Positions 3,465 to 54,513 of a stretch of DNA of 64,000 nt are shown piece after piece. The stretch's first letter is position 1. Each line of letters opens with the position of its first letter. Position numbers and translations under genes: made by a program. The stretch is from Pseudomonadota bacterium (GTDB lineage Bacteria > Pseudomonadota > Alphaproteobacteria > JBCCHK01): assembly GCA_039028835.1 (NCBI GenBank), contig JBCCHK010000008.1, forward strand, positions 6,698 to 70,697, given 5' to 3'. The notes under the pieces are model-generated. The model had not been told where the DNA came from, did no database searches, and saw only the letters and a list, made by a program, of their open reading frames with translations.

Positions 3465-4463
3465 CTAAAGCCCACGGCCTTGATTGACAAACCGGGTCGT
3501 AAAGGCCTTGCTGACATCCAAGCCATCGGGCAAGGCGCCAGTTTTCACAATCAGCGCAAGGTGGTCTTGCCATTTTTCTTGAGTCATGGCGCCAATCCCC
3601 AAACGCTTGGCATCGCCCGATTGGATGATGCCATGCTCGATCATCGATCGATGGGAGTGTGTAAGGTGATCGGCGGTCATTTTTGGGTTTTCTTGTAAGA
3701 TAAGGTCATGGGCGGGGCTCGGGTCATCGTGCAAATAAGCATGCCAGCCATCAATCGATGCCTGGACGAACCGCTCGATAAGATCGGGGTCTTGTGCGAT
3801 CTTCGCGCGGGTGGTCTCAATGGTTGTCGCATAACCGGGCAGACCATGATCGGCGAGCAGAAAAACGGTTGCTTGTCGTCCAGTTTGTTGCTCAAAAGTG
3901 TAGGGTTCAGAAGTAAGATAGCCTTGCTGGGCATCGGCCTCGCGCGCAAGCAAAGGGGCCATGCTAAAGGTATAGGGACGAATATCTTCATCCTGCAGGT
4001 TATAGTTTTTCTGTAGCCAGGGCCAGAAAGTCACACGGCCAATTTGCGAGATCAAAATCGGCTTACCGCGCAGGTCTTGCAATGTTTTGATGCCGGCATC
4101 GGGATGAGCCATAATGATCTGTGGGTCTTTTTGAAAAAAGGCGGCAACAGTCACCAGCGGCGCATCTTGCCCGAGCGCGTTAAGGGCCGTGCCACTCCCC
4201 CCCATGCGCACGTCAAGCTTGCCGGCCAAAAGAGCCTGGGCGTGATAGGTGCGCGGGCCACCAGGGATGATCGATACCTCAAGCCCAGCGTCGCGATAAA
4301 GCCCTAACGCCAAGGCTTGATAGTGGCCGCCGTGTTCGGCCTGGGGATACCAGTTGGTGGCAAAGCGCACCGGCGTTGCCGCGCGCGCAATAAAGGGCGC
4401 TGCTATCATGCTGGTGGTGGCTATAGAAAACGTGCGCCGAGAGATGGCCATAGAGAGAGTCAT
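3465..4463 (-). CDS. ABC transporter periplasmic substrate-binding protein (NMT1/THI5-like) with a Tat-like signal.
   Basis: The N-terminal 'SRRTFSIATTSMIAAPFIARA' twin-arginine signal is present. It lies in an operon with the permease and ATPase. Confidence 0.7.
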   Translation of the reverse strand: MTLSMAISRRTFSIATTSMIAAPFIARAATPVRFATNWYPQAEHGGHYQALALGLYRDAGLEVSIIPGGPRTYHAQALLAGKLDVRMGGSGTALNALGQDAPLVTVAAFFQKDPQIIMAHPDAGIKTLQDLRGKPILISQIGRVTFWPWLQKNYNLQDEDIRPYTFSMAPLLAREADAQQGYLTSEPYTFEQQTGRQATVFLLADHGLPGYATTIETTRAKIAQDPDLIERFVQASIDGWHAYLHDDPSPAHDLILQENPKMTADHLTHSHRSMIEHGIIQSGDAKRLGIGAMTQEKWQDHLALIVKTGALPDGLDVSKAFTTRFVNQGRGL

Positions 4464-20698: not shown

Positions 20699-20803
20699 CT
20701 TGATGAACTGGGGGACTATGGGGCGCGTGGGCCTGTAGTTCAGCGGTAGAACCCGCCGCTCATAACGGTGTTGTCGCAGGTTCGAATCCTGCCGGGCCCA
20801 CCA
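20699..20803 (+). repeat. Left copy of an ~105-bp imperfect direct repeat (tRNA-Met plus ~30 bp of leader). It brackets the nar island.
   Basis: 'tcttgatgaactgggggactatggggcgcgtgg...ttcgaatcctgccgggccc' is ~88% identical to the segment at 32710-32814. Confidence 0.7.
20729..20803 (+). tRNA. tRNA-Met (anticodon CAT), elongator type.
   Basis: A manually folded cloverleaf fits: acceptor GGGCCTG/CGGGCCC, U8A9, D-arm GTTC-AGCGGTA-GAAC, anticodon loop CTCATAA, T-arm GCAGG-TTCGAAT-CCTGC, discriminator A and encoded CCA. The paired 1:72 position argues against an initiator. Confidence 0.8.
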
Positions 20804-20822
20804 TGAAGCTTTTCAAAGAAGG

Positions 20823-20852
20823 TTTGTGCCTTAAAGTCCGCCATTCTCTGGC
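20823..20852 (+). terminator. Rho-independent terminator downstream of tRNA-Met.
   Basis: The hairpin CCGCCAttctcTGGCGG is followed by GGCTGTTTT. Confidence 0.5.
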
Positions 20853-21208
20853 GGGGCTGTTTTGTCGTTGACGGGTTTGCCCGGCAGAATCTAGCTATTT
20901 CTACGAATTTCATGATGATCTGGTGCCCATGCCGTTAAACGGCCCTCCCGCCAGGTTTATTCCTTTGCTGAAGTTGCGGCATTCATGGGGTGGCAGGTTG
21001 AGCGGATCATGATCTGCTGTCTGCGGTTTTAGCGTTATTGCACCTTTGTATGATCGGCGGATTGTGCAAGGAATAGAAAAGATATGATTTGAATAGTTTG
21101 TCGTAATTTTTATCGTATGTACAACGATACACGGTGTTGCCTAATCGATTATTATTTTATTGATATTTCTCCGTTCGTCTTTTCTATCTGCTCTATGTAT
21201 GCTGATTT

Positions 21209-22015
21209 TTAATAACGGATGCCTGCATGCGTAGGGCAGTGCGGGCAATCTTCCTTTGTTGCCAGGGTGCATTCATGCGCCGTATCCAAGTCGCAGAAAT
21301 GACAGAGCGCATAAGCGTCTTTCAAGCGAATTTTTTCACCTTTAATATCAATCCCCATTTTCTTGATTTGCGAAAGTGCACGGGAAAACGTTTCCGGGGT
21401 CATGCCCAGGTGATTGGCAATCGTTGATTTCTTAAATGGTAGCTCAAACTCCATGGTGTCTGAGTTTTGGGTGTCTGAGTTTTGGGTGTCTGAGTTTTGT
21501 TCCATGTGCTTTTGCAAGAAATAATATCCCACCCGTTGAACCGGTGATTTGATGGCCATGGCATCGATTTGGTGCATCGCGGTTTTATAGTGGTGTGTCA
21601 CAATTTTGAGCAGATTAGTCGCGAATTGATGATCTTGCAAAACGAATCTTTTAATAAACCCTCCTGGAATGAGCATGAGCTGGGCATCATCAACGACCTG
21701 AACCGCAATGGGTGACGGGCCACGCATAAAGAGCACAGCTTCCATACAAACCTCTCCTTGTCCAAGCATACGTATGGTGGCCTCACCACCATCTCTATTG
21801 GCTCTCAGCGTTCTTAACCGCCCTTCAACAATAAAATAGACATGCGTGGGTTGATCGCCTTGTTGTACGAGAAGGTGTCCGGCTTTGTAGTCCTGAAGGG
21901 TAGAGCTTTCCAGTATCTGCTGCAGAGCTTTCTCACTCAATCCTGTGAACAATTGAGGCTTTTTGCTGAGCTCAGCAAAGTTCCGAGGTTTCGCTATCGT
22001 GCTGTTTTTAATCAT
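21209..22015 (-). CDS. Crp/Fnr-family transcriptional regulator with a C-terminal cysteine cluster (NarR/Fnr-like).
   Basis: A cNMP-binding β-roll ('YFIVEGRLRT', 'GQGEVCMEAV') and an HTH ('KSTIANHLGMTPETFSRALSQ') are present. There are no N-terminal Cys residues. The C-terminal tail 'CHFCDLDTAHECTLATKEDCPHCP' has five Cys. A QNSDT tandem repeat sits in the linker. Confidence 0.75.
   Translation of the reverse strand: MIKNSTIAKPRNFAELSKKPQLFTGLSEKALQQILESSTLQDYKAGHLLVQQGDQPTHVYFIVEGRLRTLRANRDGGEATIRMLGQGEVCMEAVLFMRGPSPIAVQVVDDAQLMLIPGGFIKRFVLQDHQFATNLLKIVTHHYKTAMHQIDAMAIKSPVQRVGYYFLQKHMEQNSDTQNSDTQNSDTMEFELPFKKSTIANHLGMTPETFSRALSQIKKMGIDIKGEKIRLKDAYALCHFCDLDTAHECTLATKEDCPHCPTHAGIRY
21456..21500 (-). 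repeat. Perfect 15-bp tandem repeat ×3 (gtgtctgagttttgg) inside the Crp/Fnr gene. It encodes (QNSDT)3 in frame.
   Basis: Read directly: units at 21456-21470, 21471-21485 and 21486-21500, the last with one mismatch. Confidence 0.9.
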
Positions 22016-22063
22016 AGTTTATTGATTGCGCCACAAAAAAGATTCTTCTTAATTTGCATCAAC

Positions 22064-22077
22064 TTGATTTGAATCAA
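22064..22077. promoter_or_regulatory. Consensus FNR/Anr box TTGAT-N4-ATCAA in the divergent fnr-like/narK promoter.
   Basis: 'TTGATTTGAATCAA' is an exact match to the E. coli FNR consensus half-sites. It lies ~95 bp upstream of the narK start codon. Confidence 0.6.
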
Positions 22078-22145
22078 TTTCAACGTGCTCCAATCATGCC
22101 AAAAAACCTGTAATGATCAAGAAATAAGACGTATTTACAGGTCTT

Positions 22146-25094
22146 ATGCAAACAGGAGAGAGCAATGCCATGGTCACAAAGTCAGAACAAACACGGGCTC
22201 TGAGTTTAAGCACCTTTGCCTTTACCGCATGTTTTGCTGTTTGGACTATTTTTTCCATTATCGGCATTCAGATTAAGAGCGATTTGGGCCTCAATGATAC
22301 GCAGTTTGGCCTATTAGTCGCGACCCCGGTTCTCACGGGATCTTTAAGCCGTCTGCTTTTAGGGATTTGGGCAGACCAGTATGGCGGGCGCATTGTTTTT
22401 ACGCTGACAATGCTTGCCTCAGCATTATCGACGTGGCTTTTGTCCTCTGCCAACACTTACGAGATATTCTTGGTTGGCGCTTTGGGCGTTGGTTTGGCTG
22501 GCGGCGGGTTTGCCGTCGGCGTGGCCTATGTATCGCAATGGTATACGAAGGAAAAGCAAGGCACGGCCCTGGGGATTTTTGGTGTTGGTAATGTCGGGGC
22601 AGCCTTTACTAATTTTGGCGCGCCGTTTTTGTTAATCGCTTTAGGATGGGAAGGTACGGCCAGAGTCTACGCCATCATGCTTGCGATTGTTGCTCTCTTT
22701 TTCTTTGTCCTTACCAAGGATGATCCCAAGCTGGCGGTGCGCAAGAAAAATAAAGAAAAACCGCGCTCTGTTCTAGCGCAAATGGAGCCTTTGAAAAAAC
22801 TACAGGTCTGGCGGTTCTCGCTCTATTACTTTTTTGTTTTCGGGGCTTTTGTAGCGTTAGCGTTGTGGTTGCCGCGCTATTATGTCGGTGTTTATGGTCT
22901 GGATATTAAAATGGCCGGTATGTTGGCAGCCGCTTATGCGTTGCCGGGTTCGATTTTCCGAGCTCTGGGTGGATGGATGTCGGATCGCTACGGTGCACGG
23001 GCGGTCATGTATTGGACATTTATAGCTTGTGTGTTGGTTTGTTTTTTTCTTTCTTATCCCTATACGACCTATATCGTGCAAGGAGTTGAAGGGCCGATCC
23101 AGTTTGAGTTTGGCGTCAATCTGCCGACCTTTGTCGCGCTGACGGTTATTCTTGGTTTCTTTATGTCCTTGGGTAAAGCTGCGGTTTATAAGCATATTCC
23201 GGTTTACTACCCAGAGCATGTGGGTGCTGTCGGCGGGGTTGTCGGTTTGGTTGGTGGCTTGGGTGGCTTCTTCTTGCCGATTGTCTTTGGCTTTATGAAT
23301 GATGTGATTGGTGTCTGGACGAGCTGTTTTATGATGCTCTTCGGTATTACGGCATTTGCCCTTTTGTGGATGCATGCATCGATCCTGTTTATGGAAGGCA
23401 CAATCGAGAAACCGAAGTTCTTGCCGGAGCTTAAACTTTCTAAAGCAAAAGAAATAGAAAGTGTTGACAAAGCCACTGAGTTTAAGAATCAAGGGCTGGA
23501 AGACTGGAACCCTGAAAATGAAGAACAGTGGGCGCGTTGGGGTAAGAATGTTGCGTATCGCAATCTCTGGATCTCTATTCCTTCGTTGCTGTGTGGTTTT
23601 GCGGTCTGGCTTTATTGGGGCATCATCACGGTACAGATGCTTAATCTGGGTTTCCCGTTTGCCAAGGCCGATCTCTTCTCACTGATGGCAATCGCGGGCC
23701 TTTCAGGCGCGACATTACGTATCCCTTCGACCTTCTTTATTCGATTGGCGGGCGGGCGCAATACAATTTTTATGACGACGGCGCTATTGATTGTGCCAGC
23801 ACTGGGCGCGGGAATTGCGTTACAAGATCCAAACACACCGCTTTGGATATTCCAGGTATTAGCGCTGCTTTCTGGATTTGGCGGTGGTAACTTTGCATCT
23901 TCTATGTCCAATATCAGCTTTTTCTTTCCGAAGAAAAAGCAAGGTTTGGCATTAGGTCTCAATGCAGGCTTGGGCAACTTTGGTGTCACCACGATGCAGA
24001 TTTTGATCCCGTTGGTGATGACATTCGGTGTTTTTGGTGGCGCACCGATGGTGCTAGAAAGTACAAGCGGTACGCTAATTGGCAAGATTTCTGCCGGCAC
24101 CGATACTTATATTCACAATGCCGGTTTTGTTTGGTTGGTTTTCTTGATCCCCCTTTCTATCGCGGCATGGCTTGGGATGGATAATATCAAGGCCAAACAC
24201 GTGTCGCCGGGACTGGGCGCGCCGCCAATGGCATTTTTCCAGATTGGTGTCATGTTGCTCATCGGCTTAGGTGTTGGCGCCGCCGGGTTGTGGTTAATGT
24301 TGCCAGAAAGTGCCAATGGCTCTGGTTTTGATGTGAGCAAATATATTGTTCTGCCCTTGGTAATTGCCGCGACCGTGATGATACTCAAGATGTTACCAGG
24401 TGACATTGGTAGCAGCCTGAAACGTCAGTATCAAATTTTTAAGCATCCGCATACATGGGTGATGACCGTAATCTATACCATGACTTTCGGTTCCTTCATC
24501 GGGTTTGCTGCATCCTTTCCATTGGCGATCAAAGTGGTGTTTGGTTTCCAGCATGTTGCTGGCCCGGATGGCGTTGTAACCCATGATCTGGCTAACCCAA
24601 ACGGACCAAGTGCTTTGATGTTTGCCTGGATGGGGCCATTTATCGGCGCGTTGATTCGTCCTGTGGGTGGCTGGATTTCTGATCGGATGGGTGGGGCCCT
24701 GGTAACGCAGCTTTGCTCGATCGTGATGGTCGGTTCTACGCTGGGTGCTGCGTATTACATGAAACTTGCTTACGCTTCCGCCACGCCGGAAATCTATTTT
24801 TTGCCGTTCTTGGTGTTATTCCTTTTGCTTTTCACAGCAACCGGGATTGGCAACGGGTCCACGTTTCGCACCATCGCAATCGTGTTTAACAAGGAGCAGA
24901 CTGGCCCGGTACTTGGCTGGACCTCTGCGGTGGCTGCTTATGGTGCCTTCATTATTCCAAAAGTGTTGGGTGAGCAAATCAAGCTCACCACACCGGAAAT
25001 GGCGCTCTATGGCTTTGCAGCTTTCTATGCTCTTTGCGTGATTTTGAATTGGTTTGTTTATCTGCGCCCTGGTGCGAAACACAAAAACCCTTAA
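22146..25094 (+). CDS. narK: Fused two-domain nitrate/nitrite transporter NarK1-NarK2 (tandem MFS).
   Basis: It is 982 aa with about 24 TM segments in two MFS halves. An RBS-supported start is likely at 22170 (aggaga-N9-ATG). It lies immediately upstream of narG. Confidence 0.8.
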   Translation: MQTGESNAMVTKSEQTRALSLSTFAFTACFAVWTIFSIIGIQIKSDLGLNDTQFGLLVATPVLTGSLSRLLLGIWADQYGGRIVFTLTMLASALSTWLLSSANTYEIFLVGALGVGLAGGGFAVGVAYVSQWYTKEKQGTALGIFGVGNVGAAFTNFGAPFLLIALGWEGTARVYAIMLAIVALFFFVLTKDDPKLAVRKKNKEKPRSVLAQMEPLKKLQVWRFSLYYFFVFGAFVALALWLPRYYVGVYGLDIKMAGMLAAAYALPGSIFRALGGWMSDRYGARAVMYWTFIACVLVCFFLSYPYTTYIVQGVEGPIQFEFGVNLPTFVALTVILGFFMSLGKAAVYKHIPVYYPEHVGAVGGVVGLVGGLGGFFLPIVFGFMNDVIGVWTSCFMMLFGITAFALLWMHASILFMEGTIEKPKFLPELKLSKAKEIESVDKATEFKNQGLEDWNPENEEQWARWGKNVAYRNLWISIPSLLCGFAVWLYWGIITVQMLNLGFPFAKADLFSLMAIAGLSGATLRIPSTFFIRLAGGRNTIFMTTALLIVPALGAGIALQDPNTPLWIFQVLALLSGFGGGNFASSMSNISFFFPKKKQGLALGLNAGLGNFGVTTMQILIPLVMTFGVFGGAPMVLESTSGTLIGKISAGTDTYIHNAGFVWLVFLIPLSIAAWLGMDNIKAKHVSPGLGAPPMAFFQIGVMLLIGLGVGAAGLWLMLPESANGSGFDVSKYIVLPLVIAATVMILKMLPGDIGSSLKRQYQIFKHPHTWVMTVIYTMTFGSFIGFAASFPLAIKVVFGFQHVAGPDGVVTHDLANPNGPSALMFAWMGPFIGALIRPVGGWISDRMGGALVTQLCSIVMVGSTLGAAYYMKLAYASATPEIYFLPFLVLFLLLFTATGIGNGSTFRTIAIVFNKEQTGPVLGWTSAVAAYGAFIIPKVLGEQIKLTTPEMALYGFAAFYALCVILNWFVYLRPGAKHKNP

Positions 25095-25108
25095 GAGGAT
25101 ATAAAAAG

Positions 25109-28100
25109 ATGAGCTATTTCATCGACCGTATTTCATACTTTGCTCAAAGCCGTGAAAAGTTTTCTGATGGCCATGGCGTCACCACACAAGAAAACCGAGT
25201 TTGGGAAGAGGCGTACCGTGGTCGCTGGGCGCATGACAAAATTGTGCGCTCTACCCATGGCGTGAACTGTACAGGCTCTTGCTCTTGGAAAATCTATGTC
25301 AAAAACGGATTAATTACGTGGGAAACGCAGCAAACAGATTATCCGCGAACACGTCCCGGTTTGCCAAACCATGAGCCACGGGGCTGTTCACGTGGGGCAA
25401 GCTATAGTTGGTATATCTATGCTGCTAATCGCCTGAAATATCCGTTGATCCGCAAGCGTCTTTTGAAGATGTGGCGGCGCATGAAAGCGCAGCATGGCGA
25501 TCCTGTAGAGACATGGAAAGCCATTCAAGCCGATCCGATTTTGCGCACTGAATATCAAAAACTTCGTGGGCGGGGCGGATTTGTTCGTGCTGAGTGGGAT
25601 GAGGTGAACGAAATCATTGCAGCGTCCAACATTCACACAATTAAGGAGCATGGGCCGGATCGTGTTATCGGATTTTCCCCCATTCCGGCCATGTCGATGG
25701 TGTCGTATGCGGCTGGCTCGCGCTACCTTTCGTTGATTGGTGGTGTATGTATGAGTTTTTATGACTGGTACTGCGATTTGCCGCCAGCCTCGCCGATGAC
25801 ATGGGGTGAACAAACCGACGTTCCGGAAAGCGCAGATTGGTATAACTCAGGCTTTATTATGATGTGGGGCTCTAACGTTCCGCAAACAAGAACGCCTGAT
25901 GCACACTTTATGACTGAGGCGCGCTATAAGGGGACGCAAGTGGTCACAATCACGCCGGATTATTCGGAAGCCTCTAAGTTTGGCGATATCTGGCTCAACC
26001 CGAAACAGGGTACGGATGCGGCCGTTGGCATGGCGATGGGGCATGTGATTCTCAAAGAGTTCCACCTTGAAAATACGTCTGAATATTTTGACGACTATAC
26101 CCGTCAATACTCCGATTTCCCCTTCCTTGTGAAACTAGAGAAACGCGACGGGCGTTATGTGCCGGGTCGTATGGTGCGCGCTTCTGATTTTGAGGGCGCT
26201 TTGGGGCAAAAAAACAACCCTCAATGGAAAACGGTTTGCCTGGATGAAAAAACAGGCACTCTCGTTGTTCCCACCGGTTCCATCGGTTTTCGCTGGGGTG
26301 AAGATGAGAAGAAAACCGGGCAATGGAACATTGCGCCCCTCGATTCCAAAACCAAGAAAGAGATTCGTCCGCAAAAGACTTTGCTCGGCTCTCATGATGA
26401 AGTTCTCACTGTGGGCTTCCCATACTTTGCCAACGCTGAGCATGAGCATGGTTATTTTGCAGGTAATCAACAAGATGAGATTTTAGATCGTCATCTGCCC
26501 GTCAAGTATCTGGAGATTAATGGCGAGAATGTACCAGTTGTGACGGTCTTTGATCTGGTTTGTGCGAATTACGGTATCGCTCGTGAGGGGCTTGGTGGCG
26601 ATAATGTGGCCTCACGCTACGATGAGAACGTGCCGTATACGCCGAAATGGCAGGAACGGATCACCGGTGTTCCCGCGGATAACATTACCTACGTCGCGCG
26701 TGCCTTTGCTGATAATGCGGATAAGACCAAAGGTAAATCGATGATTATCATCGGCGCGGCGATGAATCACTGGTATCACATGGATATGAATTATCGAGCA
26801 TGCATCAACATGCTCGTATTCTGTGGCTGTGTTGGTCAATCGGGCGGTGGTTGGTCGCATTACGTAGGGCAGGAAAAACTGCGACCACAGACCGGATGGC
26901 TGCCGCTTGCGTTCGCGCTGGACTGGAACCGTCCACCGCGCCAGCAAAACTCAACCTCGTTCTTTTATGCGCATACAGATCAGTGGCGTTATGAAACGTT
27001 GGGCGTGGATGAGATTTTGTCGCCGACAGCAGACAGATCGCGCTGGCAAGGTTCGCTGATTGATTGCAATATCCGCGCCGAGCGTATGGGTTGGTTGCCC
27101 TCCGCACCACAGCTGGAGGAAAACCCGATTGGGCTTGTCAAGAAGGCTGGCAAGAAAAATCCAGTCGAGTATGTCACAGAGCGTCTCTCCCGTGGCGATT
27201 TGCGCATGTCCTGCGAGGATCCAGATCATCCAGCAAACTGGCCGCGTAATTTATTTGTCTGGCGTTCGAACCTCTTGGGTTCTTCGGGTAAAGGGCATGA
27301 GTATTTCCTCAAGCATTTTCTAGGGACACAGCACGGTGTGCAGGGCAAGGACCTCGGTGAAGAAGGAAAAAGCGCGTCCAGGGATGTCGTCTGGCATGAT
27401 AAAGCGCCGGAGGGAAAACTTGATCTGGTGGTCACCCTCGACTTTCGGATGTCTACGACATGTATGTATTCTGATATCGTTCTACCGACGGCGAGTTGGT
27501 ATGAGAAGAATGATCTCAATACCTCGGACATGCACCCTTTTATTCACCCGCTGTCTAAGGCCATTGACCCAGTATGGCAGAGCCGCAGTGACTGGGATAT
27601 TTACAAAGGATTAGCAAAGAAGTTCTCCGAGCTTGCACCAGGTCATCTGGGGATCGAAAAAGAAATCGTCCTCACGCCCATCCAGCATGATACACCGGGC
27701 GAACTTGCGCAAAACGATGTGAAAGAGTGGCGTAAAGGGCAGTGCGATCTTGTGCCCGGCGTAACCGCGCCTGCCATGAAAGTGGTGGAGCGAGATTATC
27801 CGGCAACGTATGAGCGTTTTACCTCTCTTGGCCCGCTCATGGAAACGTTGGGTAATGGCGGTAAGGGCATTGGTTGGAATACCAGCCAGGAGGTGGCTTT
27901 CCTGAAAGCTCTGAATGGTGAAAATAGACAAAATTGCGCAAACATCCAAAGTGATATTGATGCTTGCGAAACGGTGATGACCTTAGCGCCGGAAACCAAT
28001 GGTGATGTGGCTGTCAAGGCGTGGGAGGCTTTGGGTAAAATTACGGGCCGTGACCATACCCATTTGGCGCTGCCGAAAAAAGAAGAAAAAATCCGCTTCC

Positions 28101-28849
28101 ACGACATTCAGGCGCAACCGCGTAAAATTATCTCATCACCCACATGGAGTGGGCTGGAATCCGAGCACGTTTGTTATAATGCAGGTTATACCAACGTGCA
28201 CGAATATATCCCTTGGCGCACACTGACCGGGCGACAACAGCTTTACCAGGATCACCCGTGGATGCTGGATTTTGGCGAGGGACTGGTTTCCTATAAACCG
28301 CCGATCAATACGGCAACGATCCACACCATGCTCGAAAAGCATGGTGGTGAGGATACCCCGCATGTGACGCTCAACTTTATTACACCGCACCAGAAATGGG
28401 GTATTCACTCGACCTATTCTGACAATTTACACATGCTCACGCTTTCCCGTGGCGGGCCAATTGTTTGGATGAGTGAAAACGATGCTAAAAAAGTAGCGAT
28501 CAAAGATAATGACTGGGTTGAAGTCTTCAATACCAATGGGGCCATTACCGCGCGGGCAGTGGTATCTCAACGTGTCAATGACGGGATGCTGCTCATGTAT
28601 CACGCACAGGAAAAAATCGTCAATACACCGGGCAGTAAAATCACCAACGCCCGTGGCGGCATTCATAACTCTGTGACACGGGCAACGGTTAAGCCGACTC
28701 ATATGATCGGGGCGTATGCACAACAATCATACGGCTTTAACTATTATGGCACAGTGGGATCAAACCGTGATGAGTTCGTGATTGTACGCAAGATTGAAGA
28801 TCAGGATATCGACTGGATGGAAGAACCATTAAAGGCGGTAGAACAATGA
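25109..28849 (+). CDS. narG: Respiratory nitrate reductase alpha subunit.
   Basis: The N-terminal FeS0 motif 'HGVNCTGSCSWKIY' (H-x3-C-x3-C) is present, and the ~1246-aa size fits. The start was moved to 'MSYFIDR' with the RBS aagagga. Confidence 0.9.
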   Translation: MSYFIDRISYFAQSREKFSDGHGVTTQENRVWEEAYRGRWAHDKIVRSTHGVNCTGSCSWKIYVKNGLITWETQQTDYPRTRPGLPNHEPRGCSRGASYSWYIYAANRLKYPLIRKRLLKMWRRMKAQHGDPVETWKAIQADPILRTEYQKLRGRGGFVRAEWDEVNEIIAASNIHTIKEHGPDRVIGFSPIPAMSMVSYAAGSRYLSLIGGVCMSFYDWYCDLPPASPMTWGEQTDVPESADWYNSGFIMMWGSNVPQTRTPDAHFMTEARYKGTQVVTITPDYSEASKFGDIWLNPKQGTDAAVGMAMGHVILKEFHLENTSEYFDDYTRQYSDFPFLVKLEKRDGRYVPGRMVRASDFEGALGQKNNPQWKTVCLDEKTGTLVVPTGSIGFRWGEDEKKTGQWNIAPLDSKTKKEIRPQKTLLGSHDEVLTVGFPYFANAEHEHGYFAGNQQDEILDRHLPVKYLEINGENVPVVTVFDLVCANYGIAREGLGGDNVASRYDENVPYTPKWQERITGVPADNITYVARAFADNADKTKGKSMIIIGAAMNHWYHMDMNYRACINMLVFCGCVGQSGGGWSHYVGQEKLRPQTGWLPLAFALDWNRPPRQQNSTSFFYAHTDQWRYETLGVDEILSPTADRSRWQGSLIDCNIRAERMGWLPSAPQLEENPIGLVKKAGKKNPVEYVTERLSRGDLRMSCEDPDHPANWPRNLFVWRSNLLGSSGKGHEYFLKHFLGTQHGVQGKDLGEEGKSASRDVVWHDKAPEGKLDLVVTLDFRMSTTCMYSDIVLPTASWYEKNDLNTSDMHPFIHPLSKAIDPVWQSRSDWDIYKGLAKKFSELAPGHLGIEKEIVLTPIQHDTPGELAQNDVKEWRKGQCDLVPGVTAPAMKVVERDYPATYERFTSLGPLMETLGNGGKGIGWNTSQEVAFLKALNGENRQNCANIQSDIDACETVMTLAPETNGDVAVKAWEALGKITGRDHTHLALPKKEEKIRFHDIQAQPRKIISSPTWSGLESEHVCYNAGYTNVHEYIPWRTLTGRQQLYQDHPWMLDFGEGLVSYKPPINTATIHTMLEKHGGEDTPHVTLNFITPHQKWGIHSTYSDNLHMLTLSRGGPIVWMSENDAKKVAIKDNDWVEVFNTNGAITARAVVSQRVNDGMLLMYHAQEKIVNTPGSKITNARGGIHNSVTRATVKPTHMIGAYAQQSYGFNYYGTVGSNRDEFVIVRKIEDQDIDWMEEPLKAVEQ

Positions 28850-30453
28850 AAATACGTGCGCAAATAGGCATGGTGCTTAATCTCGATAAATGTATTGGGT
28901 GTCACACCTGCTCAGTCACTTGTAAGAATGTCTGGACGTCTCGCGAGGGCATGGAATATGCCTGGTTCAATAATGTTGAAACCAAGCCTGGTGTTGGCTT
29001 TCCTAAGCAATGGGAGAATCAGGAACAATGGCATGGCGGGTGGCACCGCACAAAGAGTGGAAAAATCCATCCCAAACAAGGGGGACGCTGGCGCATTTTG
29101 GCGAAGATTTTTGGCAATCCAGATATGCCAGAAATTGATGATTATTACGAGCCGTTTACTTTCGATTATGACCATCTTCAAAACGCCCCTGAGTCAAAAA
29201 ATATGCCAACGGCACGGCCACGATCCTTAGTGTCCGGGCAGCGCATGGAGAAGATTGAATGGGGGCCAAATTGGGAGGAAATTTTAGGCACTGAGTTTGA
29301 ACACCGGCGCAAGGATTATAATTTTAAGAATATGGAAGAGCAGATGTATGGAGAGTTTGAAAACACCTTCATGATGTATCTTCCGCGCTTGTGTGAACAT
29401 TGTCTGAATCCAACCTGTGTGGCGTCCTGTCCATCGGGCTCTATTTATAAACGTGAAGAAGATGGTGTGGTTCTGGTCGATCAGGATAAATGTCGCGGCT
29501 GGCGCATGTGCGTATCGGGCTGTCCGTATAAGAAGATTTATTATAACTGGAAATCCGGTAAGGCAGAAAAGTGCACGTTATGCTATCCGCGTCTTGAAAA
29601 CGGAGAGCCAACGGTATGTTCAGAGACCTGTGTCGGGCGCATTCGATATCTGGGTGTGATTTTATACGATGCAGACCGTATCGAGCAGGCCGCAAGCGTT
29701 GCCAATGAGGAGGATCTTTATCAGGCACAGTGCAACATCTTCCTTGATCCCCATGATGCAAAGGTCATAGCCCAGGCACGAAAAGACGGCATTCCTGGGA
29801 ACTGGATTGAGGGGGCGCAAACCTCACCAGTGTACAAAATGGCGATAGACTGGAAAGTAGCCTTCCCGTTGCATCCTGAATATAGAACTTTACCGATGGT
29901 TTGGTATGTTCCGCCGCTGTCTCCCGTGCAAAATGCAATCCAAACAGGAAAACTACCGACAAAAGGCATTTTGCCTGATGTGGATAAAATGCGCATTCCG
30001 GTGAAATATTTGGCCAATATGCTCACCGGCGGCAAGGAAGAACCGGTTGTTTTGGCTCTTAAACGCTTGATGGCGATGCGTCATTTTATGCGAGGCGAGT
30101 TGACCCAGGGCAAGGCCGATCCGAAGGTATTACAAGAGGTCGGCCTTACTGCGTCTTTGGTGAAGGATATGTACAAAACGATGGCACTTGCTAACTATGA
30201 AGATCGCTACGTGATACCGACCGGTCACCGTGAGGAAACGCTGGATGCTTACGGCGAAAGCGGTGCTTGCGGCTTTAGCTTCGGCAATGGTTGTGCTTTG
30301 CATTCCCATAGTGATGTTGATCTCTTTGAAAATCCAATGAACTGGCGCGGTCGTAGTGCTTCTGGCAAAGACAACCGTGTGAATACATTGTTCACCCAAG
30401 GAAAAACAAGCACATCAGGCGGCTGCGGTAGCGGCGGCTGTGGTTGTAATTAG
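28846..30453 (+). CDS. narH: Respiratory nitrate reductase beta subunit.
   Basis: The N-terminus 'MKIRAQIGMVLNLDKCIGCHTCSVTCKNVW' is near-identical to the enterobacterial NarH start. Multiple Cys ferredoxin clusters are present. There is an unusual Cys/Gly-rich C-terminal extension. Confidence 0.9.
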   Translation: MKIRAQIGMVLNLDKCIGCHTCSVTCKNVWTSREGMEYAWFNNVETKPGVGFPKQWENQEQWHGGWHRTKSGKIHPKQGGRWRILAKIFGNPDMPEIDDYYEPFTFDYDHLQNAPESKNMPTARPRSLVSGQRMEKIEWGPNWEEILGTEFEHRRKDYNFKNMEEQMYGEFENTFMMYLPRLCEHCLNPTCVASCPSGSIYKREEDGVVLVDQDKCRGWRMCVSGCPYKKIYYNWKSGKAEKCTLCYPRLENGEPTVCSETCVGRIRYLGVILYDADRIEQAASVANEEDLYQAQCNIFLDPHDAKVIAQARKDGIPGNWIEGAQTSPVYKMAIDWKVAFPLHPEYRTLPMVWYVPPLSPVQNAIQTGKLPTKGILPDVDKMRIPVKYLANMLTGGKEEPVVLALKRLMAMRHFMRGELTQGKADPKVLQEVGLTASLVKDMYKTMALANYEDRYVIPTGHREETLDAYGESGACGFSFGNGCALHSHSDVDLFENPMNWRGRSASGKDNRVNTLFTQGKTSTSGGCGSGGCGCN

Positions 30454-30464
30454 GGAATAGGACA

Positions 30465-31172
30465 ATGAAGACATTAAAAGTTTTGGGCGTTCTGCTGACG
30501 TATCCCTCGGCCGATTTGATGAAAGCTTTACCGGAGTTGCAGAAAATCCTGAAAAAAGAAAAATGGTTGTCAGAAAAATCGTTAAAAACGCTTGGCCATT
30601 TGATGGATTGGATGAGTGCGCAGGACTTGCTAGATTTACAAGAAGAGTTTGTTGCGCTGTTTGATCGTACGCCGTCGCTTTGTTTACATTTGTTTGAGCA
30701 TGTCCATGGCGACTCGCGTGATCGCGGGCAGGCTCTGGCTGATCTCTCAGAGATTTATAAAGACGCAGGTCTGCTTATTAATACTGAAGAAATGCCTGAT
30801 TTTCTGCCGCTGTTTTTAGAGTATCTTTCTGTGATTGATGCGCAAGAGTCACGCCAGAACTTGGGAGAGATTGCCAATGTTCTGGGTGTTTTAGCCAGGC
30901 GTTTGAACAGTAGGCGCTCACCTTATGCTTGTGTGTTTGAAGGGCTCATTGAGGCGGCGGCCCGTAAGCCTGATAAAAAGGCTGTTGAAGCGGCCCTTAA
31001 AGATGCGACCGGTAAGGCAGGGACGTTTGAGGAGCTGGATCAATCATGGGAAGAGCAGAACGCTTTCGAGAACTCCTTACAAACCATAGAGCAGAATATG
31101 AGCGGCGGTTGTCCAAAGGCCGAGGCCATGTTGGCGCAGATGAACCTACCAAAAGAAAACGAGGAGGTATAG
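30465..31172 (+). CDS. narJ: Nitrate reductase molybdenum cofactor assembly chaperone.
   Basis: Its position between narH and narI, its size and the TorD-like N-terminus support the call. Confidence 0.8.
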   Translation: MKTLKVLGVLLTYPSADLMKALPELQKILKKEKWLSEKSLKTLGHLMDWMSAQDLLDLQEEFVALFDRTPSLCLHLFEHVHGDSRDRGQALADLSEIYKDAGLLINTEEMPDFLPLFLEYLSVIDAQESRQNLGEIANVLGVLARRLNSRRSPYACVFEGLIEAAARKPDKKAVEAALKDATGKAGTFEELDQSWEEQNAFENSLQTIEQNMSGGCPKAEAMLAQMNLPKENEEV

Positions 31173-31176
31173 AGCT

Positions 31177-31851
31177 GTGGATTTCTTTTTATTTCAGATT
31201 TTCCCTTATATTGCGATCGCTGTTTTTGCGTTGGGGAGCATTCTGCGGTTTGACCGTGATCCTTATTCGTGGCGCTCAAAATCTAGCCAGCTTCTAAGAC
31301 GAAAACAATTCATTGTTGGTAGTATTCTGTTTCATTGCGGGATTATCACGATTTTGCTCGGGCATATTGTGGGGCTACTAACCCCGATTGCGGTGTTTGA
31401 TGCTGTGGGCATTTCCCATGGTGTAAAGCAGATTTTGGCGATGACGGCTGGCGGGATTGCGGGAGTATTTTGCTTTATCGGGCTGGTTATGTTGCTTCAT
31501 CGTCGTTTGGTTGATCCGCGTATTCGTGCGACCAGTTCTTTTTCGGATATTGCTGTATTGGTTTTGCTTTTGGCGCAGCTTTGTCTGGGGATGTATACGA
31601 TTACGGAATCGATGAAGCATTTAGACGGGCATGAAATGGTTAAGTTCATGGAATGGGCCCAGCATATCGCAACACTCCGTGGTGGGGCTCATCATTATGT
31701 TTCTGATGTGGCGTGGGTATTCAAAGTGCACCTGGTGCTGGGGATGTTTATTCTCTTTGTCTGGCCCTTCACAAGGCTTGTACATGTGTTCAGTGCACCG
31801 GTCGGATTTGTGTTCCGGCCTTATCAAATTGTTCGTAAAAGGGAGATTTAG
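31177..31851 (+). CDS. narI: Respiratory nitrate reductase gamma subunit (cytochrome b).
   Basis: It is 224 aa with five TM helices carrying the conserved His ligands. Confidence 0.85.
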   Translation: MDFFLFQIFPYIAIAVFALGSILRFDRDPYSWRSKSSQLLRRKQFIVGSILFHCGIITILLGHIVGLLTPIAVFDAVGISHGVKQILAMTAGGIAGVFCFIGLVMLLHRRLVDPRIRATSSFSDIAVLVLLLAQLCLGMYTITESMKHLDGHEMVKFMEWAQHIATLRGGAHHYVSDVAWVFKVHLVLGMFILFVWPFTRLVHVFSAPVGFVFRPYQIVRKREI

Positions 31852-31854
31852 GAG

Positions 31855-32616
31855 ATGGTTGCTGCGCCCAGTATTAGCGTAAATGGTATCAAAATTACAC
31901 CTCAGCAAATTAATGCGGAGGCGCAATATCATCCGGCTGAAAGTTTTTTTAGTGCCCAATATGAAGCCACGCAGGCTTTGGTCGTACGGGAGCTTTTAAT
32001 CCAGCGGGCGGTTGATTTGGGGCTTTGTCAACACGACGCAGGGATCAAAAATCCGGATGACGTTTTGGTAGCATTGTTTGAAAAAGAAATAGTGCTTCCT
32101 GAAGCAGATGAGCAAACATGCCGGCGTTTTTATGAGCAGAATAAAAAGCGATTTTTTACTGCACCCTTATTCGAAGCAGCGCACATCTTATACCCAGCCC
32201 CGCCGGGGGATAAGCAGGCCCGCGACGCTGCCTTAGAAAAAGCACAAAAAGCGTTGGTGCGGATTATGCAAAAGCCAGAGTGTTTTAAGACAATTGCGAG
32301 AACAGAGTCGGCGTGTTCATCTGCCAAAATGGGCGGGCATCTTGGGCAGATCACCAAAGGGCAGACGGCGCCCGCTTTCGAGGCAGCATTGCTTGATATG
32401 CAAGAGGGGGATCTTTCCGAACAGCCCCTAGCCAGTGAGTTTGGCTATCATTTGATTAAGGTTCATAAACGTCTTGAAGGCAAACAATTGCCTTTTGGTG
32501 CCGTGCATGAATGGATTGTCGATTATCTGCAGCAGCAAAGCTGGCAGAGGGCTTTTCGTCAGTATGTTCAGCTTTTGGCAGGACAGGCCAAGGTAAGCGG
32601 ATTCCAGCCAGGCTGA
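31855..32616 (+). CDS. PpiC-type (parvulin) peptidyl-prolyl cis-trans isomerase, nar-associated.
   Basis: A parvulin domain ('SAKMGGHLGQITKGQTAPAFEAA', 'FGYHLIKV') is present. From memory, this is the same position as the PpiC-type gene after narI in Pseudomonas nar clusters. Confidence 0.65.
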   Translation: MVAAPSISVNGIKITPQQINAEAQYHPAESFFSAQYEATQALVVRELLIQRAVDLGLCQHDAGIKNPDDVLVALFEKEIVLPEADEQTCRRFYEQNKKRFFTAPLFEAAHILYPAPPGDKQARDAALEKAQKALVRIMQKPECFKTIARTESACSSAKMGGHLGQITKGQTAPAFEAALLDMQEGDLSEQPLASEFGYHLIKVHKRLEGKQLPFGAVHEWIVDYLQQQSWQRAFRQYVQLLAGQAKVSGFQPG

Positions 32617-32709
32617 CAGTCCGCTTGTACAGTAATACTTGCACGATGTGATCGCCGCTTTTTGAGCAGGGTTTCCTACGTGGGGATTTTCTGGCCTTGT
32701 ACCTGATTC

Positions 32710-32814
32710 TCTTAATGAACAGGGGAACGATGGGGCGCGTGGCCTTGTGGTTCAGCGGTAGACCCCGCCGCTCATAACGGTGTTGTCGTAGGTTCGAATC
32801 CTGCCGGGCCACCC
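32710..32814 (+). repeat. Right copy of the ~105-bp direct repeat (tRNA-Met-like plus leader) bracketing the nar island.
   Basis: It aligns to 20699-20803. Confidence 0.7.
32741..32814 (+). tRNA. tRNA-Met(CAT)-like sequence, probably a degenerate copy or pseudo-tRNA.
   Basis: It is ~90% identical to the tRNA at 20729-20803 and has the same CAT anticodon loop. However, the acceptor stem (GGCCTTG vs CGGGCCA) has a G1:A72 and a C3:C70 mismatch, the D-stem has a mismatch, and there is no encoded CCA. Confidence 0.45.
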
Positions 32815-51235: not shown

Positions 51236-52105
51236 CTACAGCCCCCATAGGCGGGCACTCCTGAGGCATTGCAAGCCACAAAGGCCGAAGATGAGAGCGC
51301 TGAACACTGTCCAATCGACCTCGAAGAAAAAACGCTCAAAGCGAACATCGGGAATAGGAGCACTGCCGAATATTGCTACCAGAAACTCGCTGAAGAAGAG
51401 GAAAGAAAGTAAGGCCGTGATAATCAGTAAGGGGCGTGCAAACCTTGGTGTGGGAACGAGAAAGGTTATACAAGTCATGCAAGCGAGCATAAGAACGAAC
51501 CAAATCAAAAACGCATCCGAAACTTGTAAGACAAAAAAAGAAAACGCAACCAAACCAAAAAAAGTCAGATACAAGATTTTTACGACGCGACCAGAGTCAC
51601 CACCAGGTGAGAGACCGATCCAGCTTCTCCGTTGTAGGCCGTTATACCCGCGCATATTCATGCGATCCAGTCGTCTCATGGCCTGTGCGCGGGAATTATC
51701 ATCAGAAATAAACTTGGAAAGGTATTCCCGCCAGATGAGCACAACGATGAATATGAGCGGAAAACCGATTGTTTGTAATTTTAATCCACGGTCGTACGTC
51801 TCACCCATCTGCGATACAGACCAAGCGAGCCCCGCCACGGCGAGCAAGGTTGTGGCTTTATTCAGCCAAGGCTTAAAGGTCGGCACAGGGTAAAAGGACC
51901 AGAATGCGATGCCGCTCCAAATGAAGAAGATCATCATGACCAAGAAAAGCCATCTCGTCAGTTCGATCGTTGGGGCTAGGGTCATGTGGGAAACCGCGAG
52001 GATCACAAGGGCGAAGACAGCCCAGTACAGGATCAAGCCCGCCCAGCGACGGCCAGGATTCTTGATTTTAGGGCGTTCTAGTTTCTTAGGGCGCTCTAGT
52101 TTCAC
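51236..52105 (-). CDS. Hypothetical polytopic membrane protein (~8 TM). The N-terminus may be shorter.
   Basis: Strongly hydrophobic TM segments are present throughout. It lies in a low-GC segment divergent from the 781-aa ORF. The annotated N-terminus 'KLERPKKLERPK' derives from a 17-bp tandem DNA repeat and may be upstream regulatory DNA. Confidence 0.45.
   Translation of the reverse strand: MKLERPKKLERPKIKNPGRRWAGLILYWAVFALVILAVSHMTLAPTIELTRWLFLVMMIFFIWSGIAFWSFYPVPTFKPWLNKATTLLAVAGLAWSVSQMGETYDRGLKLQTIGFPLIFIVVLIWREYLSKFISDDNSRAQAMRRLDRMNMRGYNGLQRRSWIGLSPGGDSGRVVKILYLTFFGLVAFSFFVLQVSDAFLIWFVLMLACMTCITFLVPTPRFARPLLIITALLSFLFFSEFLVAIFGSAPIPDVRFERFFFEVDWTVFSALIFGLCGLQCLRSARLWGL
52066..52099. 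repeat. 17-bp tandem direct repeat ×2 (tagggcgYtctagtttc) in the divergent intergenic region or the N-terminus of the membrane gene.
   Basis: Read directly from 'cttagggcgttctagtttcttagggcgctctagtttc'. Confidence 0.8.
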
Positions 52106-52167: not shown

Positions 52168-54513
52168 ATGGCCTATTCACAGTTTCAAAGCGGCGAGAAA
52201 AAGGTCGACTTAGAAAACGATATCGGGGCTAAGGTTCTGGAGGAGGTGGCATGGGCTCTAGTGAGTGGTGTAGAAGCTGCTGCCAAGGATGTCGTCGGTG
52301 AAAAAGGCGAATTCATCGATGGTGGTCCTAAAACACGCGCTGGTAAAATTGCCAGTCAGATCACGCGATACGGCATTTTCTTTGCATCATTCTTCACGGG
52401 TGTGGGGGCTGTCGCAAGAGTTATGCAGGGTGCGCGATTGGCCCGTGCGTTACACGGTACACGATTAGCGGGTGCGGTGCCTAAGATCCAGACTGCGGGA
52501 CGCGCTATCGAGAAGGAACGAGCTTTTATCGCCGCTGATGCCACTGATTTTCTTACGCGTGAGGAACCCTATGACACCAGTGAAAGGGTTATGAGCATAA
52601 CAAGAGGTCTTAATGTCAATCGCTTCGGCGATAATATCCTCAAGCACGCAGATAAAGACTCGCTCGTCAGAAAATTACTGGAAAATGAAGAAGTTCAAAA
52701 GACTGTTAAGTCTGCGGATATCATCTTGGGAAGCACTGTTATAGAAAATATCGCTGAAATAATAGCCGGGGATGACATCCCCCCCAGGGATGTAACCAAC
52801 GTTATCATTAACGTAACAGCACAAAGTTTTGATAAGAATATCAGGCAAGCGATCAAAGAAGGAAAGATCGAAGAGCCCGTCGACAATCTCTCACGATTGT
52901 CCGGTCTTTCCCCGGAGGAGCTGATGGACCTGCACGAAGGAAAAACAGACCCCGTCCAGATTGTTGCCATCAATGAAGCCCTGACCCTCGGCCCAAAAGC
53001 CTATACCACCATCGCCGAGGTCACAAAATCAGCCGGCCCCCTCGGCCAGCTTCAGGCATACAACACCCACAGCACCTTTACCCTGATGCAAGGCATCGCC
53101 AGAAAAGAACCCAAGCAAATCAATCAAGCAATGCAAAACCTTGACCGAACATCCCAAGCCCAGCAAGCCATCGGCTTGACCACAGACAAAAACAAGCAAC
53201 GCGAGATTGTCTTTGCGTGCCTTGGTGATGAGGGAGTCGATATGACCTATCACCTGGTGCAATCAGCGAGCAAAATCGCACAAGAAAAACCTGACAGATT
53301 CGGGGAGTTCATCCATGATGCCAACAGGTCGATAGATACCGAAGAACTTGGCAACGTCCATAAAGGATACCTCACTGATGATCCTTATGACCGCTTTGAG
53401 GACTATCGATCCTTACGCGAAAGGCAGAATAAATTCGATCCGGAACAAGGTACGCCTCTTCAGATCAATGATGTGCCAGAAAATCTCATTCCCGTTAAAA
53501 TGAAACGCGCACAGCAAGCCCAAGAAAACGCACAAGAAAGCGCACAGAAAAACACGCCAGCAGGGCAACAACAAAACCAATCACAACCAGCCAAAAACCA
53601 GCAACAAGCCCAAGCCCAGCGCTCCGCACCCAACGCGGGGGCAAAGCCTGGCCAGCAGTATTCAGCCGCCGATCAGCGGCTCATCGCCCTTGCCCAAGTC
53701 ATCGCCCAAGCGAAGGCCCAGCAGCAACAAAACCAAGCCCAAGCGCAACCCCAGACAGACACAAAACCCAATCCACAGCGCATCGGCCAGGCTGCCGCCC
53801 GACACCTCGCAGAGCTTGAGCAGGCCGCCGCGCAAAGGCGCCAAGCCCGCGCCAAAATCGCCGAACGACATGATGCTCAGACCATGGCCAAAGAAACAGA
53901 ACTCATCAAAGCCATCACAGAAGGTCAGCGCAGAGCCGACGCCCAGGCAAGAGCCGCCCAAGCCCAACAGCAACAAGCCAACGAGGCGCAAGCAACGCAA
54001 CCTTTCGAAGAGGAACAAGCCCAAGAGCGATACCCCGCCGGATCACGATACCGCCCCGCGCCACGTTCAAAGACCTTAGGCGGCGGTAACGTCCAAGCGG
54101 GCCGCAACCGCGGACGCAACCTGATGGCGTCGGTCGGAGGCTCCTCCTCTTCCTCTACAGCATCAAGCCGCCCCCAACGCCCGGCCAGCCAGCAACAGAA
54201 TGACAACCGTGATGATAACCGTTCGGACAGCACACGTTACGTCCAAAACAGGCGTAAGGCCAATTCCAATGCGCCCTATCATCCGCTTTACAATCCCTAC
54301 CGGCGGGAGCCTTCCCGTTCGGGCGGCGATACCCAAAACAGGCCCTCCCGCACCCCATCGCGGCGGCGCGGGCTTAGCGGTTATGAACGATATCGCGATC
54401 ATATCAGTGACCGAAGCCCTTCGAGTCCGTCAAATAAAGCAAATAAGTCAAGTCGCTCGCGTTCCCGCAGCACCTACTCGGGCTATGGGCGGTTTGGAGG
54501 ATCCGGACGGTAA
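52168..54513 (+). CDS. Large hypothetical protein (781 aa). It has a globular N-terminal ~450 aa, a Gln/Ala-rich coiled region and an Arg/Ser/Gly-rich basic disordered C-terminus.
   Basis: A strong RBS (taggag-N7-ATG) precedes it. No signal peptide is present. The low-complexity central region is 'AQAQQQQNQAQAQPQ...' and the C-terminus is 'SRSRSRSTYSGYGRFGGSGR'. It has no recognisable catalytic motif. Confidence 0.55.
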   Translation: MAYSQFQSGEKKVDLENDIGAKVLEEVAWALVSGVEAAAKDVVGEKGEFIDGGPKTRAGKIASQITRYGIFFASFFTGVGAVARVMQGARLARALHGTRLAGAVPKIQTAGRAIEKERAFIAADATDFLTREEPYDTSERVMSITRGLNVNRFGDNILKHADKDSLVRKLLENEEVQKTVKSADIILGSTVIENIAEIIAGDDIPPRDVTNVIINVTAQSFDKNIRQAIKEGKIEEPVDNLSRLSGLSPEELMDLHEGKTDPVQIVAINEALTLGPKAYTTIAEVTKSAGPLGQLQAYNTHSTFTLMQGIARKEPKQINQAMQNLDRTSQAQQAIGLTTDKNKQREIVFACLGDEGVDMTYHLVQSASKIAQEKPDRFGEFIHDANRSIDTEELGNVHKGYLTDDPYDRFEDYRSLRERQNKFDPEQGTPLQINDVPENLIPVKMKRAQQAQENAQESAQKNTPAGQQQNQSQPAKNQQQAQAQRSAPNAGAKPGQQYSAADQRLIALAQVIAQAKAQQQQNQAQAQPQTDTKPNPQRIGQAAARHLAELEQAAAQRRQARAKIAERHDAQTMAKETELIKAITEGQRRADAQARAAQAQQQQANEAQATQPFEEEQAQERYPAGSRYRPAPRSKTLGGGNVQAGRNRGRNLMASVGGSSSSSTASSRPQRPASQQQNDNRDDNRSDSTRYVQNRRKANSNAPYHPLYNPYRREPSRSGGDTQNRPSRTPSRRRGLSGYERYRDHISDRSPSSPSNKANKSSRSRSRSTYSGYGRFGGSGR

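Follow-up and report, generated by a model that had tools for sequence, protein, structure and literature searches.

The gene of a transcription regulator that adjoins the nar genes contains three head-to-tail copies of a 15-bp unit, and the locus raises the question whether this repeat is a variable element that tunes the control of nitrate respiration, as the initial annotation had proposed, or a mutation private to one lineage. The repeat, its host protein, its relatives and its genomic surroundings were analyzed within a window of 64 kb, the term used here for the whole stretch of DNA under study. The coordinates of the features are collected in Table 1.

The repeat array and its host regulator

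TRF reports the array with a period of 15, 3.0 copies, 100% matches and a score of 90, the highest TRF score in the 64-kb window. With up to two mismatches allowed, the repeat unit GGTGTCTGAGTTTTG occurs at three adjacent sites against 0.07 expected from dinucleotide shuffles, and a pattern search found no further occurrence in the window even at two mismatches. On the coding (minus) strand the unit reads CAAAACTCAGACACC, three times in succession. The array starts exactly at codon 173 and is codon-aligned, with three QNSDT pentapeptides as residues 173-187. It is flanked by CTCCAT on the one side and TTCCAT on the other and does not extend beyond them in either direction. The chance of two more exact copies of a 15-mer is 4^-30 per position, and a chance origin of the array can be dismissed. 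The perfect, in-frame, threefold 15-bp repeat first described for this gene was thus recovered by TRF, pattern search and translation. It had been placed at 21456-21500 with a last copy that differed by 1 nt; this is correct in that phase, but these coordinates are one base out of phase, and a shift of one base makes every copy perfect. An overlapping 54-aa open reading frame (21400-21564, minus strand) was rejected as a gene, being the repeat in another frame inside a well-supported gene. Other, imperfect tandem repeats of the window lie at 53503-53768 (23-bp and 33-bp units, 81% identity) and at 52068-52103 (18 bp in two copies, 94%).

Table 1. Features of the repeat-bearing regulator gene and its nar neighborhood (window coordinates)
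Feature	Coordinates	Strand or location	Basis
Host gene, 268-aa CRP/FNR-family transcription regulator	21209-22015	minus	Pfam, Foldseek, identity to MEM7047214.1
C-terminal extension, C238 C241 C249 C257 C260, putative metal or Fe-S site	21236-21304	minus	invariant columns A1, A5
Helix-turn-helix, residues 196-219	21359-21430	minus	AF2 helices 196-202 and 207-219; invariant columns
Tandem array, 3 × 15 bp, QNSDT-QNSDT-QNSDT	21455-21499	minus	TRF, pattern search, translation, codon phase
Helix alphaD, residues 158-172, just N-terminal to the repeat	21500-21544	minus	AF2 model of P0002; window model
One-mismatch FNR-like box TTAATTTGCATCAA	22049-22062		15 bp from the perfect box
Perfect FNR-type box TTGATTTGAATCAA (TTGAT-N4-ATCAA)	22064-22077	between regulator and narK	no second perfect match in the window
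Likely target operon: narK-narK fusion	22146-25094	plus	Pfam
Likely target operon: narG	25034-28849	plus	Pfam
Likely target operon: narH	28846-30453	plus	Pfam
Likely target operon: narJ	30465-31172	plus	Pfam
Likely target operon: narI	31177-31851	plus	Pfam

The host protein is identical to MEM7047214.1 (P0001 below), which comes from a MAG of a Pseudomonadota bacterium. Its architecture is that of the CRP/FNR superfamily, with an N-terminal beta-roll of the cNMP-binding type (Pfam PF00027 cNMP_binding, residues 41-127, 60 bits against a cutoff of 27.5) and a C-terminal winged HTH of the Crp type (PF13545 HTH_Crp_2, residues 161-239, 45 bits against a cutoff of 27). The AlphaFold model has a pLDDT of 73, and its top Foldseek matches in the PDB are all CRP/FNR regulators at a probability of 1.00 (3fx3, T. 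thermophilus TAP, A. fischeri FNR, and DNR). The protein fits none of the curated subfamilies tested. Its scores for the two FtrB models were 117 bits for NF006901 (cutoff 211) and 75 bits for NF050815 (cutoff 300), and the NCBIfam model of Fnr (PRK11161) gave 32 bits with a cutoff of 228. The MAGs that contain members of its family carry the labels Micavibrio, Alphaproteobacteria or Pseudobdellovibrionaceae.

The family shares with E. coli FNR the fold, the E--SR recognition motif and an FNR-type box at the target promoter. The residues of this motif (E208, S211 and R212) are invariant in the family, stand opposite E209, S212 and R213 of FNR, and are kept in the repeat-bearing protein. In E. 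coli FNR, C20, C23, C29 and C122 ligate a [4Fe-4S] cluster. Unlike FNR, the host family is devoid of the N-terminal Cys cluster; the first Cys of the host protein is C90, and no N-terminal extension is present. Six Cys are invariant in the family, namely C90 (21746-21748) and five in a C-terminal C-x2-C-x7-C-x7-C-x2-C motif (residues 238-260), an extension that, judged from its sequence, looks like a metal or Fe-S sensing module. In this respect the family is similar to the Fnr of Bacillus, a regulator of nitrate respiration, which also combines a Cys-rich C-terminal extension with the lack of an N-terminal cluster and binds its [4Fe-4S] cluster at a C-terminal site through C227, C230, C235 and D141 (PMC3520743). 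The Cys of the two proteins align loosely, however; identity is 21%, the Cys spacing differs, and the cluster in the host family is putative.

The regulator gene is divergent from narK-narGHJI, and a PPIase gene follows narI. The same synteny of regulator and nar genes was found in the relatives L004 and L005. By family and by location, the earlier description of an Fnr-like regulator linked to nitrate respiration is borne out. In Paracoccus, narR reportedly adjoins narK and is divergently transcribed. The host resembles NarR by position and taxon, both being alphaproteobacterial CRP/FNR-family genes that adjoin, and diverge from, narK-narGHJI and whose products have no N-terminal FNR Cys cluster. 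NarR is described as an FNR-like regulator of narKGHJI without an Fe-S cluster (PMC8139620), whereas the host family has its six invariant Cys, a comparison made with the description of NarR. The two FNR-type boxes between regulator and narK are reported by TRF as a 15-bp repeat in two copies (22048-22077). In 67 of the 70 fetched loci a perfect box is present at 45-60 bp before the start codon of the regulator; it is therefore a feature of the family, arising from autoregulation or from control by another FNR-type protein. A scan for sigma-70 promoters between 20600 and 22400 returned zero sites.

Several further observations concern the neighborhood. In the 982-aa product of the narK ORF, two MFS halves are fused; an AGGAG motif resembling a Shine-Dalgarno sequence precedes the second ATG of this ORF (about 22170), and translation may thus begin 8 codons downstream of the mechanically assigned start. 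The mechanically assigned start of the narG ORF (25034) overlaps the end of narK. The block from the regulator through narK-narGHJI to the PPIase gene (~20729-32814) has a GC content of 47-51%, compared to 55-60% in its flanks. It is bracketed by two tRNA-Met genes on the same strand (20729-20803 and 32740-32814), which are ~92% identical, including ~35 bp upstream, and between which no integrase was found. The moeA gene adjoins the regulator in relatives and does not do so in the window. The block may be a nar island acquired horizontally.

Copy number in the assemblies and among relatives

The Logan contig L001 (SRR22824298) agrees with the window at 4241 of the 4241 overlapping bases. Logan contigs are assembled at k = 31, and the k-mer set was computed to be identical for all arrays of three or more copies at k=21 or k=31; the contig therefore establishes a number of at least three. 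For a number of exactly three the basis is the assembly from which the window was taken; it resolves this number if a k of at least 55 was used. L001 ends at window position 20775, within the tRNA-Met gene on the left, as would be expected if an assembly at k=31 broke off at a duplicated tRNA. That the copy number is an assembly artefact, the real array being longer than three units or heterogeneous and the assembler having returned the shortest path, is hardly credible. The Logan contig leaves room for it, giving one k-mer set for every such array, but at least three copies are certain, the array of 45 bp is below the standard short-read length, any assembler with a k of at least 55 tells three copies from two and from four, and the window is part of a 151-kb contig of the kind that is typical of multi-k assemblers.

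Among 5.8 billion protein clusters the identical protein was found once (P0001, a one-member cluster from one contig), and the next best match is only 86% identical. Most of the close homologues are 258 aa long, exactly 10 aa under the 268 of the host. Where the host has three pentapeptides, every homologue in a 43-sequence alignment has a single one, with the consensus QGSDN. Between alphaD and the PETFSR motif the spacing is the same in 119 of 119 non-self homologues, the host alone being longer by 10 residues, and the length of the loop is likewise constant in the 58 non-self loci among 59 found by pattern matching in GTDB genomes and JGI metagenomes. In all, ~180 relatives, down to ~50% identity, have one pentapeptide each at the repeat site. 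The alignment with the DNA of the nearest relative has a clean 30-nt gap between conserved flanks and a single unit, CAGGGCGCTGACAAT. This relative is 81.9% identical in nucleotides, with 97 synonymous codon differences and 43% of the third codon positions changed; compared to this third-position divergence, the identity of the three copies implies an origin well after the two species had separated. Perfect tandem repeats of 24 nt or more are absent from the 58 other family genes (0/58). GTDB genomes and JGI metagenomes, scanned with the protein as a guide, yielded other species only, the best at 82% identity, and the repeat-bearing lineage is represented by one genome from one sample. The array is a recent, derived and lineage-private triplication.

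The contingency repeats of Haemophilus, Neisseria and Campylobacter have units of 1-8 nt, usually in many copies, which are polymorphic between or within strains and which turn genes ON or OFF by shifting the reading frame or the promoter spacing. The array shares with them the form of a perfect head-to-tail coding repeat that could in principle change its length by slipped-strand mispairing. It differs from them in its 15-nt unit, its 3.0 copies, its permanent reading frame and the absence of observed polymorphism. The unit is a multiple of three and codon-aligned (15 nt, 5 codons), so that any gain or loss stays in frame and causes neither a frameshift nor ON/OFF switching. The proposal of a contingency-like, length-variable locus, in which expansion and contraction would make a population heterogeneous in its control of nitrate respiration, is accordingly very improbable. 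It does draw on the intrinsic proneness of a perfect tandem array to slippage, on at least two recent expansion events, and on the compatibility of the k=31 Logan contig with more than three copies in some cells. Nevertheless, there are three copies only, and the comparison of copy number across related genomes, offered at the outset as the way to check the proposal, revealed the ~180 relatives to be without a repeat and fixed at one unit and one loop length. No version of the host protein with 1, 2, 4, 5 or 6 copies was present among 15 billion proteins by exact look-up, and a 23-mer of flank and unit had no match in the JGI metagenomes; for the lineage itself these results concern one genome. 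To our knowledge, regulators are also not the usual hosts of contingency repeats, as judged by the loci of Haemophilus and Neisseria. A related idea, that of a hypermutable in-frame length switch in a loop equivalent to activating region 1 (AR1) of FNR, the RNA polymerase contact, which would grade nar activation across cells, is given equally little probability. If it were true, the transcription factor itself would carry a rheostat, as opposed to an ON/OFF contingency gene.

Position of the repeat loop and its possible effects

In the AF2 model of the single-copy homologue P0002, a helix (158-172) is followed by a turn (173-178) that contains the pentapeptide and by a strand (179-181) that leads into the HTH. 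In the model of the three-copy protein, the turn becomes a 15-residue loop, part of which is drawn as a continuation of alphaD; the pLDDT of residues 177-186 is below 50. The unit aligns opposite R184-G185-F186-S187-P188 of FNR (hhalign and MAFFT) and A156-M157-T158-H159-P160 of CRP (MAFFT). The hhalign comparison of the family profile with E. coli CRP covered the N-terminal domain only, and the CRP mapping rests on the MAFFT alignment of the C-terminal domains together with the hhalign result for FNR. Of the two E. coli sequences used, that of CRP is identical to PDB 1g6n, and the numbering of that of FNR reproduces the known C20, C23, C29, C122, E209 and R213.

According to these alignments and predicted structures, the repeat loop is equivalent in position to AR1 of FNR and CRP, and by analogy it may be equivalent in function. 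Like the AR1 loops of E. coli FNR (~181-191, including F186 and S187) and CRP (154-164), it is a surface turn between alphaD and the strand that precedes the HTH; unlike them, it has an unrelated sequence and a length tripled by a tandem repeat. A limited look at the CRP/FNR literature found no description of an AR1-position loop tripled in this manner. The location between dimerization helix and HTH given by the initial annotation is correct along the linear sequence, whereas in the fold the repeat is a turn inside the DNA-binding domain, after alphaD. The idea that it forms a linker setting the DNA-binding geometry was not supported, since the hinge that orients the DNA-binding domain (~153-158) lies upstream and is untouched, as is alphaD (158-172); the repeat replaces the turn from alphaD to the beta-strand.

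The mutation results in a 15-residue polar loop where all relatives have 5 residues, and leaves unchanged the sensor domain, the dimerization helix, the hinge, alphaD, the recognition helix with its E--SR motif and the C-terminal Cys motif. With the invariant residues, the nar operon and the FNR box all intact, the protein should still recognize the TTGAT-N4-ATCAA box. From the AR1 position of the loop, any functional effect would be expected on the contact with RNA polymerase, the strength of activation or the dynamics of the loop, rather than on DNA-binding geometry.

Polar insertions are in general well borne by surface turns. This argues against a mildly deleterious or inactivating mutation, in which the insert would disrupt a constrained turn, weaken the regulator and persist by drift or because nar control is dispensable. 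The length of the turn is strictly conserved, the near-invariant Gly at position 2 of the unit is Asn in all three copies, and model confidence is low across the insert, all of which would be in keeping with damage; the reading frame, the invariant residues, the FNR box and all genes of the nar operon are nevertheless intact, and such a loss is considered distinctly unlikely.

An adaptive retuning, in which a longer AR1-equivalent loop was selected for a changed contact with alphaCTD and thereby for a changed output of the nar and autoregulatory promoters, is unlikely as well. In its favor, the loop aligns with the AR1 core of FNR and CRP, where residues 154-164 of CRP constitute AR1 and contact alphaCTD (PMC12531629). 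F186 of FNR also contacts alphaCTD, and the single substitution F186I in this loop lowers activation 2-5 fold (PMC6343905). Further, since the loop does not vary in length elsewhere, altering it is likely to have consequences; two expansions in succession came to be the consensus, and a perfect FNR box is present in the divergent promoter region. On the other hand, E. coli CRP and FNR are the only proteins with documented AR1-type contacts, and a 2025 study reported the AR1 residues to be conserved only in the classes of these two proteins (PMC12531629). The sigma-70 consensus was not found at the promoter region, the single genome carries no signal of selection, and an insert that is polar, of low complexity and modelled with low confidence does not readily suggest a new interface.

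Origin and meaning of the triplication

The array probably represents a tolerated, near-neutral or mildly altering private mutation and not a programmed variable locus. A first duplication of 15 bp would have been followed by slipped-strand expansion from two to three copies. The slippage-prone origin suggested earlier is plausible in this regard, as the step from one to three copies takes at least two duplication events and has left no substitutions. Against this explanation, there is no microhomology at the unit junction (GAA/CAAAAC...CACC/ATG), and simple slippage does not, therefore, explain the first duplication. The direct repeats TCCAT in the flanks were rejected as its source, as they would predict a unit of 21 bp and not one of 15 bp. 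A literature search on in-frame duplications in bacterial regulators gave nothing relevant.

The strict length of the loop in ~180 relatives suggests a constraint, and an insert of 10 residues may thus not be neutral; likewise, that two expansions in succession reached the consensus sequence could be a sign of selection and not of drift. The presence of the repeat, its uniqueness, its young age and its place in the structure are shown by the analysis; slippage as its mechanism, a tolerated insert and an influence on activation are what we infer, and a tolerated loop expansion may be accompanied by a modest change of activation.

As such, the array is one more recent in-frame tandem duplication in a bacterial gene and matters little; what makes it of some interest is solely that it lies in the AR1-equivalent loop. 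[quoted passage not shown] The host family is perhaps the more interesting object, being an uncharacterized, nar-linked CRP/FNR clade of Micavibrio-like Alphaproteobacteria with an invariant C-terminal Cys motif.
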